Assembly (NCBI GenBank): GCA_963619195.1
Contig: CAVEWD010000001.1
Location: forward strand, 1-29,127
Direction of reading: 5' to 3'
DNA length: 29,127 nt
From: a bacterium
GTDB lineage: Bacteria > Bacillota > Clostridia > Eubacteriales > Anaerofustaceae
Under the pieces are notes generated by a model that worked only from the letters and a program-made list of their open reading frames with translations, was not told where the DNA came from and did no database searches. Each line of letters starts with the position of its first letter. Within the stretch, counting starts at the first letter, position 1. A program made the translations under genes and the position numbers. This document shows, piece by piece, positions 23,590 through 29,127 of the stretch.

Positions 23590-25959
23590 TTAAAAGAACA
23601 TAGCCTCTGTCCAATGGGAGTTTTGATAAACATCATTAACCATATACCAATACACTCCCTCGCTGTCCTCAAGGGATGTATAACCCACCTCAATTTCTCC
23701 GCTGTAGATTATATACATATCTTCATAGGTATAGCTGCTTTGATAATTGCCGTCATAATCATAAAAATCATACACAAAGTAGATTTCATCATTTTCTTTA
23801 AACTGCAAAAGGTCTCTGCTTGCCATATTTGTTGAATCATCAATCACACGGTACCCCTCCACATAGCCATAGGGAGAGTCATCATCATATTTCAGCATTA
23901 TCTCAATATATGTTGTGTCATTAAGTATTGCTGGCACATACCCTGTGAACACATTTGTGCCGTCATATCGAGTTTGAATTCCTTCTGAGTAATATGCCAC
24001 CACAACATCATCCAGCGAAACCCAGGTGTTGTCAAAATTTAAAAGGAGGTTATCATTATCATCCAATTCATAATACTGGTCGCTGCCCAAATCGGCGTAT
24101 CCTTCCCCATCATCAAGCCACGCCTGAACCTCAATGTTGACAATGTTTTCCCAATCTAAATCGCTAAGGGGAAGCACATTTTTTCCATCGATATATTCAG
24201 GTGTTGGCATTGTGAAGGTTCCATCGGCGTAGTCATAGCTCTCCACGGAATTGCTATTATACCATTCGTACTCCTCGTAGTCCTCTCCTTCAGATGTTAT
24301 TAGCAAATCCTGAATAGTACGCTGTTCATAGTTAACCTTGCCTCCCGCCATTATGTTCACAAAGTTATCAAAAAATTCATAGCAGCTTCCAGAATAGCCT
24401 ATACCAGAGAAAAAGCTTTTTGCATACTCATAGGAGTAAAGGTCGGAATATGGAAAATACATTGAAAGTCCGCAGGAACCTTGTATTTGGCAGTTGTTTC
24501 TATATTTAACCGCGCTCCTTATGCAATCCACCAAATCATTGGCTTTAACCACATCAAGATTTTTGGTAAAATCCACTATATCAATTAAGTCATACTCTCC
24601 CTCGGCATAGCTTTTGGCGTTGGCGCGTGCGGTGGATATCACAGTGTAGTTTTTCTGGAAAAGCATCTCGTTGGCGCTTTCCATGTATTTGTTAAGAGCC
24701 TCATAAACTCTGGGTATTTCCCTTAGGGAGGTTACTGATAAGGTTTGGTAGTTGTCACTGCTTTGAACATAACTATCCACCACTTTAATTCCCAAATCCA
24801 CTGAATCCATGCTGGGGTTTTCCTCCAGGGCCGAAAGCCAATCGGTGTAATACCACCCGCCTGAAGGCTCAGTTTCCTCGCTGGCAATAAGATAATCAGC
24901 ATAAGGCTCCAGCATAAAGGCTGTTTCAATGTTTGCCATAAGACATGCATCAAAGCCCACCACATCAAATTTCACCTTCGCGTCTTTAAGGGCTTGAGCT
25001 ATATCCGGCAAATAGAGGGAATCATCGGTGTATATCTCATCGTATCCAAAACCATAAACCGAACCTCCGCCATGGTCCCAGAAAATAAGAATATAACGCT
25101 CAGCCGGATAATTCTCAGCAGCAAAGGAAATAAAACTGCAAAGAGCATCTGAAGTGAGCATTCGGCTTTCTCCCAGGGAGGCAAGGGAATATATTTCACC
25201 ATCCTCAATAAGCCACCTTTCGACTTCCTCATCAGTCATAACATTGTTAGCCCATTCCTGAGTTCCGCCAGTTTGCAAAACAATTTTCACATTTTCCCCA
25301 ACATCAGAATCTATCATTTCCTGAATGTCATCAGTGGCGCAGCCATAAAGAGATTCCAGGTCGCTTCCGACCATGTAAACCATTACGGTTACGCTGCAGT
25401 CTTCATTCTGTGAAACATTGGTATAAAAATCCCTTAAGGCAGTTGCATCTAGGTCTGAGGAATAAACTCCGCTGCCGGAAGAAGTGCCGCTATTGTAGTT
25501 GGAATGCGGGATATATTCGCTATAGAGATCATCAGAATCATCACTTAATAATATCCCGCAGGCTATGCCAATAATAATAAGAATCACAGCAATAAGCCAG
25601 CCTTTTTTCTTTTTACGCTTTGGTAGAGTGTAGGGTTGATAATAACCTCCTGGCTGCTGATTGCCATAACCATTATATCCTTGCTGAGTGTAATTCGGCT
25701 GGTTGTAGCCCTGTTGTCTCATTTGGGCATTTTGTTGCCAACGACTTTGCCCATAGCCCGACACCCCTTGATTTAAGGAGTTAGGGTAATTATTGGGCTG
25801 CGAATAGCTACTTTTGTCAGAATTTCCCGGGGAATTCTGACTGCCATAGAACATAGCAGAGTTTTGGGAGGAATTATTTACAACGCTCGTGCTTCTACCG
25901 CAATTGGAACAAAATTTTGAATTATCCGGCAGAGCCTTACCACAATACCTGCAAAACAT
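23590..25959 (-). CDS. Membrane-anchored clostripain-family (C11) cysteine peptidase with N-terminal zinc ribbon
   Basis: CRYCG...FCSNCG; TM after KRKKKK; VMVYMVGSDLES, YPAERYILIFWDHGGG (His), GFDACLMANIE (Cys), ASEETEP..GW.Y; AGGAAGGA RBS favours ATG 25959. Confidence 0.92.
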   Translation of the reverse strand: MFCRYCGKALPDNSKFCSNCGRSTSVVNNSSQNSAMFYGSQNSPGNSDKSSYSQPNNYPNSLNQGVSGYGQSRWQQNAQMRQQGYNQPNYTQQGYNGYGNQQPGGYYQPYTLPKRKKKKGWLIAVILIIIGIACGILLSDDSDDLYSEYIPHSNYNSGTSSGSGVYSSDLDATALRDFYTNVSQNEDCSVTVMVYMVGSDLESLYGCATDDIQEMIDSDVGENVKIVLQTGGTQEWANNVMTDEEVERWLIEDGEIYSLASLGESRMLTSDALCSFISFAAENYPAERYILIFWDHGGGSVYGFGYDEIYTDDSLYLPDIAQALKDAKVKFDVVGFDACLMANIETAFMLEPYADYLIASEETEPSGGWYYTDWLSALEENPSMDSVDLGIKVVDSYVQSSDNYQTLSVTSLREIPRVYEALNKYMESANEMLFQKNYTVISTARANAKSYAEGEYDLIDIVDFTKNLDVVKANDLVDCIRSAVKYRNNCQIQGSCGLSMYFPYSDLYSYEYAKSFFSGIGYSGSCYEFFDNFVNIMAGGKVNYEQRTIQDLLITSEGEDYEEYEWYNSNSVESYDYADGTFTMPTPEYIDGKNVLPLSDLDWENIVNIEVQAWLDDGEGYADLGSDQYYELDDNDNLLLNFDNTWVSLDDVVVAYYSEGIQTRYDGTNVFTGYVPAILNDTTYIEIMLKYDDDSPYGYVEGYRVIDDSTNMASRDLLQFKENDEIYFVYDFYDYDGNYQSSYTYEDMYIIYSGEIEVGYTSLEDSEGVYWYMVNDVYQNSHWTEAMFF

Positions 25960-26076
25960 TTTATATTTCCTTCCTGCTTGAAATCTCAATTAATTGCTTA
26001 TATTTTAGCATAGTTTACGTTTTGTGCCTAACTGAGGGGAAATTTTTAGGAAAATGATGTTGGTAAATAATGTTTA

Positions 26077-26106: not shown

Positions 26107-26850
26107 ATGCAAAATAAATATTTCACATCAGCCATAATTGTGGCAGCGGGCAGCTCTGTAAGGATGAATTGCCCAGGAAATAAAAACTATTTACCAATTC
26201 AAGACATACCAGCTTTAAGCCTTACTCTAAAAGCCTTTGATGAGTGCACAGTGATAGACGAAATAGTCTTGGTTTATAAAAAGGAAGAACTTTCCTTTGC
26301 CATAGAAGCTGTAAAATGCGCTGGAGTTAAAAAAAACGTCAGCTATGCCATAGGCGGCACAACCCGACAGGAATCGGTATATAACGGGATTTTGGCGGTA
26401 AGTCCATCCTGCAACTACGTGGCAATTCATGATGGGGCAAGAGTTATGATAACCCCAGAAGTCATAGAAAAAGTCATGAAAGCTGCCTATGAATCAGGTG
26501 CAGCCACATCTGCAAGGAAAGTAACAGACACTCTTTGCACACTAAATGAGAGTCTATCCGAAATTGGAGAATACATAAACAGAGACTCATGCGCTTTAAT
26601 TCAAACTCCGCAATGCTTTGATTACTCGCTTATAAAAAAAGCCCATGATGAGGCACTTAAGGAGCATGTTTCAGCCACCGATGACACTTCTTTGATCAAA
26701 AGGCTGGGAAGAGAAGTTAAATTGGTGTTCACAGATGGGAAAAATCTAAAATTGACCCACCCTGAGGATGTGGTTATTGCCAGAGCAATAATAGAAAGTA
26801 GACAAAATAACAATCTCAACAAAGGAGAAAATGAGAATGCAGTTAAATGA
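26107..26850 (+). CDS. ispD: 2-C-methyl-D-erythritol 4-phosphate cytidylyltransferase (IspD/TarI family)
   Basis: AAG.S.RM....NK.YL, GGTTRQESV.NG, HDGAR, QTPQ.F, TDD, NLKLTHPED. Confidence 0.9.
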   Translation: MQNKYFTSAIIVAAGSSVRMNCPGNKNYLPIQDIPALSLTLKAFDECTVIDEIVLVYKKEELSFAIEAVKCAGVKKNVSYAIGGTTRQESVYNGILAVSPSCNYVAIHDGARVMITPEVIEKVMKAAYESGAATSARKVTDTLCTLNESLSEIGEYINRDSCALIQTPQCFDYSLIKKAHDEALKEHVSATDDTSLIKRLGREVKLVFTDGKNLKLTHPEDVVIARAIIESRQNNNLNKGENENAVK

Positions 26851-27787
26851 AAACACCTCAGTGCAGATATTTTACAAAATGATGAAATCCCGTCTTTTTG
26901 AAGAAATGTGCGTTAGGCTCAAAGAAAAAGGTTTCATTGCAGATGAACTTCACCTTTCCTACGGACAAGAAGGAATTTGTGCCAGTGTGTGCGCGTTAAG
27001 TGTTAATGACTACATATTCTCCTCACACAGAAGCATTGCTGTGGGCATTGCTGCAAATTTAGATGAAACCGCTCTTTTTACAGAGCTTTTGGGAATAAAG
27101 GAAGGAACATGCGGTGGTAGAAGCGGAATAAGTTCCATAGCAAACAGACGCCAAAACTTTTTTGGAGCTTCCCCTCTTTTGGGAGCAGCATTTTCAAAGG
27201 CTGTGGGAGCAGCCCTTGCGTTAAAACTGAAAAATGAAAACAGATCTGTTATATGCTATGCAGGCGACGGAGCAGCCTCCACGGGGCAGTTTTACGAGGC
27301 TCTTAACTTGGCCGCATTAAAGAAACTTTCAATCGTGTTTTTCATTGAAAACAACTGCTATGCAGGAAGGCTCAGAGCAGATGAAGCAAACAATGTGGCA
27401 GATATTGCCACCAGAGCCAAGGGATTTGATTTAACAGGAATAATCACTGATGGAAATAGTCCAGCTGATGTTTACACAGCCACCTTGCAAGCACTGGAAT
27501 ATGCAAAACAAAATTCCTGCCCCGTGATACTGGAGGCTAAAACCTACCGATTAGCCGGGCACTACTACAACGAAATTCAGAACTACCGAAGCGAAGATGA
27601 AGCCAAAGCTTGGCTGAAATACGACCCAATCGAAAATCATGTTCAATATATGATAAATCAAGGCATGGGCAAGTTGGAGGACTTCATTCTACTAAGAAGC
27701 AAAATAAAGGATGAAATTGACCGCGCTGCAGATAAAGCATTAGACCAATTATCATATCAAAGCATTTCATCAAGGGTGGAGGCATAA
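26837..27787 (+). CDS. 2-oxoacid/acetoin dehydrogenase E1 alpha-like subunit (divergent)
   Basis: R.FEE, HLSYGQEG, ThDP motif GDGA...ENN.YA, DGN, TYR..GH, DPI. AAGGAG RBS spacing favours ATG 26837 over 26831; overlaps the ispD end. Confidence 0.88.
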   Translation: MQLNENTSVQIFYKMMKSRLFEEMCVRLKEKGFIADELHLSYGQEGICASVCALSVNDYIFSSHRSIAVGIAANLDETALFTELLGIKEGTCGGRSGISSIANRRQNFFGASPLLGAAFSKAVGAALALKLKNENRSVICYAGDGAASTGQFYEALNLAALKKLSIVFFIENNCYAGRLRADEANNVADIATRAKGFDLTGIITDGNSPADVYTATLQALEYAKQNSCPVILEAKTYRLAGHYYNEIQNYRSEDEAKAWLKYDPIENHVQYMINQGMGKLEDFILLRSKIKDEIDRAADKALDQLSYQSISSRVEA

Positions 27788-27789
27788 AA

Positions 27790-28752
27790 ATGAGTTTTGC
27801 ATACGCGAAGGCAATAAGCAGTGCACTTATATCAAAAATGTATAAAGATGGCGACATCATTGTTATGGGACCTTCCGTTTTCACCTCCGGCAGATACGGC
27901 GAAACCGAAGGCATAGCTCAGAAATTTCCCACCAGAATTATTGAGTGCGGAATTGATGACGATGCAAATGTAAGAGCGGCTTTAGGCATGGCCATGGTGG
28001 GAATGCGTCCGGCGGTATTTGTGAACGGCAAATATTTATTTCGAATAATGGATGCTTTAGTGAATGAAGCTGCCTTAACAGATGAAATTTACAACTCTCA
28101 ATTCCCGTCAAATATGGTAATTTTGGCGGATGTGGGCGCAATGCCTGGAAGAAGCGCGCAGGAGAACTTTCTTTTTGAAGGACTATTTTGTGCAGTTCCA
28201 AATCTTAAAGTGGTGTATCCGTCAAGCGCTGAAGATGCCAATTTAATTTTAAAGGATTCCCTCGACCAAGACGGTCCTGTGCTATTTTTGATGAATGAGA
28301 AACTTCTAAGAGAAGAAGGAGAGTTCACCAAAAGCGAAGATGTCATGTTTTTAGGGCAGGCAAATGTTGTAAAGGAAGGAGACTTTGCCACCATAATCAC
28401 CTATGGGCCAATGGTAAAGGAAGCAGTTTTAGCAGCACAAACCGCCCAGAGAGCATCAATTGAATGCGAAATAATTGACTTAGTCACCTTAAGTCCAATA
28501 GATACGGCAGCAATCGTTCGCTCCGTTAAAAAAACAGGCAGAGTTATAATTGCCCATGAAGGCCACAAAACCTGTGGATTGGGCGCAGAAATAAATGCGT
28601 TAATTACAGAAAGTTCTGCCTTTGACTATTTAGAAAGACCAATAATGAGGGTTTGCGGCAAAGATGCACCTTTGAGCTACAACGAAGAGTCATACAATAG
28701 CTGCATTCCAAGTTGGAATGATATATACGAAGCCATAGCGCAGTTGGCATAA
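27790..28752 (+). CDS. 2-oxoacid/acetoin dehydrogenase E1 beta-like subunit (active-site motifs degenerate)
   Basis: Conserved PNLKVVYPS, G.A.VVKEG...TIITYG.MV, EIIDL.TL.PID, SVKKTGRVII.HE, G.GAEI, FDYLE.PI.RV...D.P; GGAGG RBS. Confidence 0.88.
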   Translation: MSFAYAKAISSALISKMYKDGDIIVMGPSVFTSGRYGETEGIAQKFPTRIIECGIDDDANVRAALGMAMVGMRPAVFVNGKYLFRIMDALVNEAALTDEIYNSQFPSNMVILADVGAMPGRSAQENFLFEGLFCAVPNLKVVYPSSAEDANLILKDSLDQDGPVLFLMNEKLLREEGEFTKSEDVMFLGQANVVKEGDFATIITYGPMVKEAVLAAQTAQRASIECEIIDLVTLSPIDTAAIVRSVKKTGRVIIAHEGHKTCGLGAEINALITESSAFDYLERPIMRVCGKDAPLSYNEESYNSCIPSWNDIYEAIAQLA

Positions 28753-28787
28753 CGACATAATTTTACCATTGAAATTAGGGAGGAAAA

Positions 28788-29127
28788 ATGGAAGAAACAA
28801 ACAGAGTAAAGGCATCTCCTGCCATAAGGAAGATTGCGAAACAGTACAATATCGACTTAAATGAAATAGTTGGCACAGGAGAAGGCGGAAGAATAGAGGC
28901 TGAAAACATTGAAAGCTACCTGCTGAATAGAAGGCATCTATCATTTTCGCAAATGGCCGAAGGCGATAAAAAAAATTTAGATGATGCCATAGACACGAAT
29001 GAAGCTGATGAATATGCTTCATATATGGACAAAAGCCTTATGGATTCTGAAGCAGAGGAAAGCAGTAACGAAAAGCCAAACTACGATGAAGAAGACTATG
29101 GTATTTCATTTTTAGGAGATGATATAG
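28788..29127 (+). CDS. E2-like protein starting with an E1/E3-binding (PSBD) domain; truncated by window edge, absent from ORF track
   Basis: AGGGAGG RBS, ATG 28788: MEETNRVKASPAIRKIAKQYNIDLNEIVGTGEGGRIEAENIESYL, then an acidic tract; open to the window end. Confidence 0.85.
   Translation, partial: MEETNRVKASPAIRKIAKQYNIDLNEIVGTGEGGRIEAENIESYLLNRRHLSFSQMAEGDKKNLDDAIDTNEADEYASYMDKSLMDSEAEESSNEKPNYDEEDYGISFLGDDI

Follow-up and report, generated by a model that had tools for sequence, protein, structure and literature searches.

The window analysed here, a stretch of 29,127 nucleotides, is the entire contig C1 (CAVEWD010000001.1) of a genome of the Anaerofustaceae (GCA_963619195.1), which according to the available part of PMC10408702 is the GTDB family name for Anaerofustis. 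Anaerofustis is genus g10 of the present set, and NCBI places it in Eubacteriales. At its 3' end the contig carries four coupled genes: ispD, the genes for candidate α and β subunits of the E1 component of a 2-oxoacid dehydrogenase complex, and an open reading frame (ORF) with a peripheral subunit-binding domain (PSBD), the start of an E2-like gene named E2* below (Table 1). Judging from sequence, the products of the last three genes very probably form a pseudoenzyme complex from which the catalytic residues have disappeared and which is retained by selection.

The stop codon of ispD overlaps the start of E1α. An alternative ATG of E1α occurs at 26831, from which the residues of this protein are counted here, and 26837 is the likelier start because of the ribosome-site spacing. 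GGAG(G) sites precede the ATGs at 26837, 27790 and 28788 by 9, 7 and 4 nucleotides, respectively. The E1α and E1β ORFs are full-length and uninterrupted, in agreement with an earlier note on this DNA, which had also described their ribosome-binding sites as good; the third ORF stays open to the contig end. A promoter scan produced 5 sites, with 7.5 expected. No E3 gene was found at the divergent locus in Anaerofustaceae.

Table 1. Coordinates of the divergent operon in the window and loci of related arrangements
Feature	Position or loci	Strand	Remarks
ispD (4-diphosphocytidyl-2-C-methyl-D-erythritol, CDP-ME, synthase), operon gene 1	26107..26850	+	TIGR00453, 206 bits, above cut-off
pseudo-E1α	26837..27787	+	PF00676, E=2e-55; short of the two PDH_E1_alph cut-offs
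Mg2+/diphosphate motif GDGA...ENN of E1α	27263..27355	+	sequence
pseudo-E1β	27790..28752	+	Glu59 to Asp57 at 27958–27960; His128 to Glu125 at 28162–28164
pseudo-E2 (E2*), 5' part	28788..29127 (contig end)	+	PSBD at 28806–28913 and start of acidic linker
Convergent erosion loci	L124–L129 (G086–G091), L132–L135 (G092, G093, G072, G071)		independent of Anaerofustaceae
E1αβ between ispD and ispF	L101, L112–L115, L130, L131, L176		order mostly without dxs; candidate DXS replacement

The E1 residues scored serve in cofactor activation, reductive acylation, Mg/diphosphate binding and aminopyrimidine contacts; counts for the family are set against 26–28 intact copies. The earlier note had aligned E1β by eye with the Geobacillus stearothermophilus protein and had read both Glu59 and His128 as replaced. 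In a HMMER alignment to human E1β (3exe/1ni4), Glu59 lies opposite Asp57 (DTPISE/ECGIDD), His128 opposite Glu125 (AAQHSQ/SAQENF), GEEV opposite GPSV and LEN opposite LMN, and the alignment to the Thermus protein (1um9) agrees. Thus the substituted positions stand, and a proper alignment does not restore Glu and His; what was not reproduced are the exact Geobacillus motifs, the G. stearothermophilus chains having yielded only a match to E1β (1w85_B, E=1e-37). The aromatic stacking position of pseudo-E1β is lost as well. In E1α of the window, GDGA..ENN and TYR..GH are kept, whereas YRAHG has become HRSI and GGSMH has become SGISS.

The same pattern extends through the family. His128 of the β subunit is retained in none of the 23 divergent copies, and the His of α GGSMH and α V117 in none of 22, all three being present in every intact copy. 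Glu59 of β, also universal in the intact set, is variable (11/23). Further losses in the 23 divergent copies concern the GTGAAAQH loop and the GEDIG acid pair of β and HGTTHL of α; pseudo-E1α of the window has also lost the His of HRGH. Position V117 is often occupied by Pro (12/22 family copies and 8/10 of the convergent copies described below). In contrast, α R67 (22/22), D146 (21/22), N175 (23/23) and Y177 (23/23) are kept, as are N174 and the AFDYLE docking region of β; the window protein also has G145. The claim that α retains TYR..GH is correct for the window, but its His occurs in only 12/23 family copies. Likewise, the description of the β C-terminal domain as highly canonical went too far: of 26 canonical-invariant positions in this domain 11 remain, compared to 12 of 56 in the N-terminal one. 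Each lost position is occupied by 7–9 different residues; three positions have become newly conserved in β, all of them hydrophobic, with no newly conserved polar residue in the 23 copies. As a separate observation, pseudo-E1α of Anaerofustis has an acidic C-terminal extension of ~290 amino acids (612–621 amino acids in total; 465 in G014; loci L041, L042, L045, L048, L051).

The E2* gene, cut by the end of C1, continues in frame on another contig of the same genome, C77 (L103:3820–4746, minus strand), which encodes more of the linker and a shrunken E2 core. The two contig ends have a 6-base in-frame overlap, the junction fits the homolog from G002, and C77 matches the C-terminal domains of E2* in relatives (E=5e-50). 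As the earlier note had it, the third gene has a PSBD (PF02817, residues 7–42, E=8e-14) and no leading lipoyl domain; such a domain was found neither in the window ORF nor in the 7 relatives scanned. However, its absence is no sign of erosion, since the intact E2 of Anaerofustaceae likewise lacks it and E3 carries it. In relatives, E2* is built from the PSBD, followed by a linker and a C-terminal domain, the last falling below the PF00198 cut-off and being unrecognised by Pfam. Across the family loci the linker has ~110–520 residues with 20–39% Asp+Glu; in two g4 genomes (L046, L047) it has 16–17% Asp+Glu and is basic, Ala/Lys-rich and helical-looking. One whole homolog is as long as 1364 amino acids.

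A structural model of the E2* core (pLDDT 92.7) has E2 cores as its best matches (Foldseek E≈1e-7); comparison with E. coli E2 gives Z=17.0 and a root mean square deviation of 2.7 Å, with 159 aligned of ~210 target residues. The earlier note had proposed a check of the downstream E2 core for HxxxDG, and neither this motif nor the catalytic His is present in any of 20 alignment rows. The core is predicted to trimerise, with a score of 0.93 (best control 0.00), contacts agreeing between runs at least at the level of 93% and pLDDT of at least 92; the score mark was reached by 20/30 solved homo-pairs and 1/23 single chains, and resemblance to E2 trimers of known structure may underlie the score. 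With 36 representatives at the 50% identity level, the family of this domain is small. No strong PF00198 E2 was found in genera g1, g3, g7, g9 and g11 (11 genomes, 76–96% complete), so that no host core came to light there.

Several other observations concern E2* and similar proteins. A Cys/His-rich stretch just ahead of the core (L103:4380-4500; G000, G002, G011) could bind metal. A 168-residue membrane-anchored protein of no known family is encoded directly 3' of E2* (L103:3285-3788) in G000, G002, G003, G005, G015 and G020, and had no match at or above 0.9 in the ESM Atlas. A search of this database with E2* retrieved PSBD-only clusters alone, and large hypothetical clusters of this kind exist there (757 members, mostly Deinococcota). 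Further E2-like proteins, P0155 and P0156, are without the catalytic His and have kept the lipoyl domain.

The divergent operon is present in 25/25 family genomes, in 23 by the β profile (the copies whose residues were read) and in G001 and G003 by direct inspection. The E2* core was found in 24 of the 25 (in G009 the contig ends within the gene) and in none of 77 genomes of four other families. A scan of genome contigs with the window β alone as the query found no relative. No internal stops occur in the 23 β matches and the 24 E2-core matches. Purifying selection acts on the divergent E1α, E1β and E2* genes: dN/dS for α/β in the three closest pairs is 0.016/0.012, 0.043/0.021 and 0.042/0.076, much like the values of intact pairs (0.019–0.078); for E2* it is 0.05–0.21 in four pairs. 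Saturated pairs (dS >1.2, dN/dS 0.21–0.39) were set aside, except G022/G012. The earlier proposal that assembly surfaces persist while the chemistry is lost or changed is supported at the level of the family, where the PSBD, the docking region and core positions are retained. Upstream of the operon, the window contains a clostripain-family peptidase gene (23590-25989, minus strand), divergent from ispD, which is not a conserved neighbour; its product has a zinc ribbon at the N-terminus, a stretch rich in Gln, Tyr and Gly and a single hydrophobic segment.

The same ispD-linked locus in three genera of family f2, namely g29 (where dxs is present), g30 and g24, has undergone a similar change. His128 of β is lost in all ten copies, and α R67, GDG (with D146) and NN (with N175) are kept in 10/10. 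The E2 C-terminus of g29 and g30 is likewise without the catalytic His; an E3-like gene has been kept. A tree built from 77 α+β pairs after removal of the motif columns requires three changes to degeneracy, and a single origin is rejected (approximately unbiased test, p-AU 0.0005, quick tree); rows with a partial subunit were excluded. In g13, E2 often lacks the lipoyl domain or the His and has a longer linker, and E1 is intact. Altered E2 beside intact E1 suggests that a non-catalytic role probably predates the loss of catalysis. Among the E2 proteins of g13 (L122:3820-6414, L141, L142), the His is replaced (DRR, DQR) or the linkers are acidic and reach 865 amino acids.

The genomic context points to the methylerythritol phosphate (MEP) pathway of isoprenoid synthesis. 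An intact E1β (DVPISE, AAQHSQ) is encoded on contig C106 of the same genome; an intact second E1 locus exists in 15 other family genomes, and partial ones in further genomes. The ispD gene is directly upstream of divergent E1α in 19/25 family genomes, contig ends preventing a reading in 3, and the main IspD motif residues G15, R19, K26, R87, S90, D109, T142, R159 and K215 are invariant in 18/18 family copies. The net charge of IspD is the same in Anaerofustaceae and in other families, which gives no sign of pairing with the acidic linker. Adjacency of ispD and E1 is order-wide (18/20 loci), whereas outside the order it was found within 1.5 kb at 0/18 loci (G194 unscored), and therefore the arrangement is ancestral.

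[quoted passage not shown] In contrast, ispG is found in 100/102 genomes, including all 25 of the family, and E1α in 99/102; among 75 high-quality order genomes, 55 have ispG and no detected dxs. At eight loci of families f3 and f5, intact E1αβ without E2 or E3 lies between ispD and ispF (Table 1). From this solitary position in the two sister families, such E1αβ is likely the missing DXP synthase. A mutant pyruvate dehydrogenase (PDH) E1 makes DXP and rescues the loss of dxs in E. coli, and purified PDH forms deoxyxylulose, as reported in the accessible text of PMC3424233. We consider it a little better than an even bet that intact E1αβ serves as a natural source of DXP replacing DXS in many genomes of the order. 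In the tree, the intact paralog of the Anaerofustaceae groups with E1s linked to DRL, and it adjoins DRL (DXR-II) in G002, G005, G011, G015 and G018; DRL and DXR are mutually exclusive in 5/5 genomes tested.

Other sources of DXP were considered. E1 and dxs are not strictly complementary, since E1α occurs in 75/75 high-quality genomes, with dxs or without. Split or diverged DXS was not found in 5 genomes: the best PF13292 matches (E≈1e-16 or weaker) are ORFs of ~270–300 amino acids that look like halves of a split transketolase, and the latter may itself supply DXP. HMG-CoA synthase (3-hydroxy-3-methylglutaryl-CoA synthase) was not found in 5/5 genomes of g24 and g30. Some further loci were noted. 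The DRL genes at L147, L151, L154–L156 and L159–L161 lie in glucitol-family phosphotransferase system (PTS) clusters, most with a SorC regulator. In G072 (L144:1585-3863), DRL is followed by a lone C-terminal gene of a split transketolase. The second, E1-intact loci of G008 (L091) and G004 (L097) have an eroded lipoyl-E3 (Pyr_redox E=9e-6 or none) and an altered E2 motif.

Comparison with known systems places the operon close to the heterotetrameric E1 enzymes (PdhAB, AcoAB, BkdAB; PF00676, PF02779, PF02780), with which it shares the domains, including tandem α and β domains, the PSBD and the β C-terminal domain, the gene order α–β–E2, the motif GDG-X(~26)-NN and the HR arginine. However, it lacks β Glu59 and His128, the α substrate loops and an E3 gene, and scores below the PDH equivalog cut-offs; E2* has the PSBD and the E2 core fold, but neither HxxxDG nor a lipoyl domain. 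The E3-binding protein (E3BP; fungal protein X), a eukaryotic pseudo-E2, is a single dead subunit within an active complex. It resembles E2* in having a dead E2-fold core and a PSBD (6h60, Z=16.3), whereas in the present operon degeneracy extends to E1α, E1β and E2 alike, and E2* has a core ~45 residues shorter and a long acidic linker. DXS belongs to the same superfamily of thiamine diphosphate (ThDP) enzymes, and intact E1 orthologs have MEP genes as neighbours in genomes that lack dxs, but the window proteins are of the E1 type, score 31 and 84 bits with TIGR00204 (cut-off 466) and have no catalytic residues. Hubs of the PopZ type combine a binding motif, an acidic disordered linker and a self-assembling C-terminus; this three-part layout is like that of E2*, by analogy only, there being no homology. 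Finally, PDH E1α of B. subtilis has a non-metabolic role, although that enzyme is active (PMC4030479, in its available part).

The combined data lead us to propose, tentatively, that the pseudoenzymes form a non-catalytic scaffold-and-sensor complex tied to the synthesis of isoprenoid precursors. An ancestral E1αβ at the ispD locus would have made DXP in place of DXS. After a second E1 (in Anaerofustaceae) or dxs (in g29) took over the chemistry, the ispD-linked copy would have kept a non-catalytic job. In this complex the PSBD, carried on the long acidic linkers of E2* oligomers, would hold E1* tetramers in place, and E1α* would bind a Mg-diphosphate ligand, at a guess ThDP, or isopentenyl or dimethylallyl diphosphate (IPP/DMAPP), hydroxymethylbutenyl diphosphate (HMBPP) or methylerythritol cyclodiphosphate (MEcPP). 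Through such binding E1α* could modulate a partner, for example IspD or the active E1. Unlikely in its entirety is a wider version, in which most of the order replaced DXS by E1αβ inserted between ispD and ispF, the complex turned wholly dead at least twice and probably three times, and it is now a diphosphate sensor on a PopZ-like acidic scaffold that controls MEP flux.

A number of observations weigh against these proposals. The kept diphosphate residues are modestly above background and only suggestive: 23/36 canonical-invariant polar positions of E1α are kept anyway, and N175 is Ser in G001. Competition of IPP/DMAPP at the ThDP site is disputed even for DXS, as the available part of PMC10203381 indicates. 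Long-term constraint is relaxed (β identity is 37%, compared to 62% for intact copies, in the same 15 genomes), and no close pair is available for the lineage of the window, whose closest relatives at the protein level are 65% and 61% identical. E1 cannot be the sole source of DXP, as g24 (G071, G072) and g30 (G092, G093), 75–96% complete, have neither dxs nor intact E1 detected. G100 and G101 retain an intact E1 although dxs is present. The intact E1 may perform lipoate-linked chemistry, given that the E2-less genomes tested keep GcvH (5/5) and E3 (5/5), and many DRL genes in PTS clusters may be catabolic, possibly for uptake or catabolism of a methylerythritol-like polyol. The link to ispD is absent in G006, G008 and G016, all of which keep the complex, and its order-wide occurrence means that partnership is not implied.

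The last two points would be expected if the complex were a hub with a structural or cell-cycle job, for example a scaffold whose acidic linkers position E1* at the division site or the nucleoid, and the position of ispD were merely inherited gene order. The variation in linker length, and the 1364 amino acids of one homolog, suggest a spacer or condensate role, and B. subtilis PDH E1α is reported in Z-ring formation (PMC4030479, available part). However, there is no division gene among the constant neighbours of the divergent locus, and E1αβ between ispD and ispF is left unexplained; this main alternative seems rather doubtful. Sporulation as the shared role was rejected, spo0A being absent in G017 (one contig) and G010, both of which keep the operon.

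The remaining alternatives are less probable still. Glyoxylate carboligase works without the conserved Glu, a precedent for an enzyme that would catalyse a new reaction, dependent on ThDP or independent of it, without Glu59 or His128, and in g24 and g30 no E1 other than a degenerate one, and no dxs, was detected. On the other hand, the diversity of residues at the lost positions, the hydrophobic character of the newly conserved ones and the uniform absence of His from the E2* core make such an activity improbable, so that the novel reaction listed among the alternatives in the earlier note is the weaker branch. About as improbable, or slightly more so, is a ThDP store or chaperone, in which E1* would hold the cofactor by its diphosphate and buffer it or pass it on to ThDP enzymes that are active. 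All three degenerate lineages keep the Mg/diphosphate motif, but binding would be weak with the aminopyrimidine contacts lost (α V117, β Glu59), the recurring neighbour families include no thiamine gene, and an E2 scaffold would be unneeded. Neutral decay of a redundant duplicate is largely refuted and very improbable. An intact paralog does exist and the divergent copy has evolved faster in the long term; however, the operon is single-copy in 25/25 genomes, the searched matches have no stops, dN/dS for α/β is 0.012–0.076 and not near 1, and the losses are targeted at active-site positions. The preference of the earlier note for a repurposed complex over random decay is thus upheld.

Previously known cases comprise single dead subunits, such as E3BP, and moonlighting subunits of active PDH; the present candidate is a complete dead E1α/E1β/E2 set. 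In the literature searched, which took in few subscription papers and no supplements, there is no description of a dead E1/E2 complex, nor of E1 as a natural DXS replacement. Such a set, encoded by core genes of a bacterial family and of convergent origin, would allow the part that these complexes play without catalysis to be studied in isolation, and the cultured genus Anaerofustis would make this role directly testable. The dxs gap, together with the E1αβ candidate, is relevant to how gut anaerobes and acetogens are supplied with isoprenoids.

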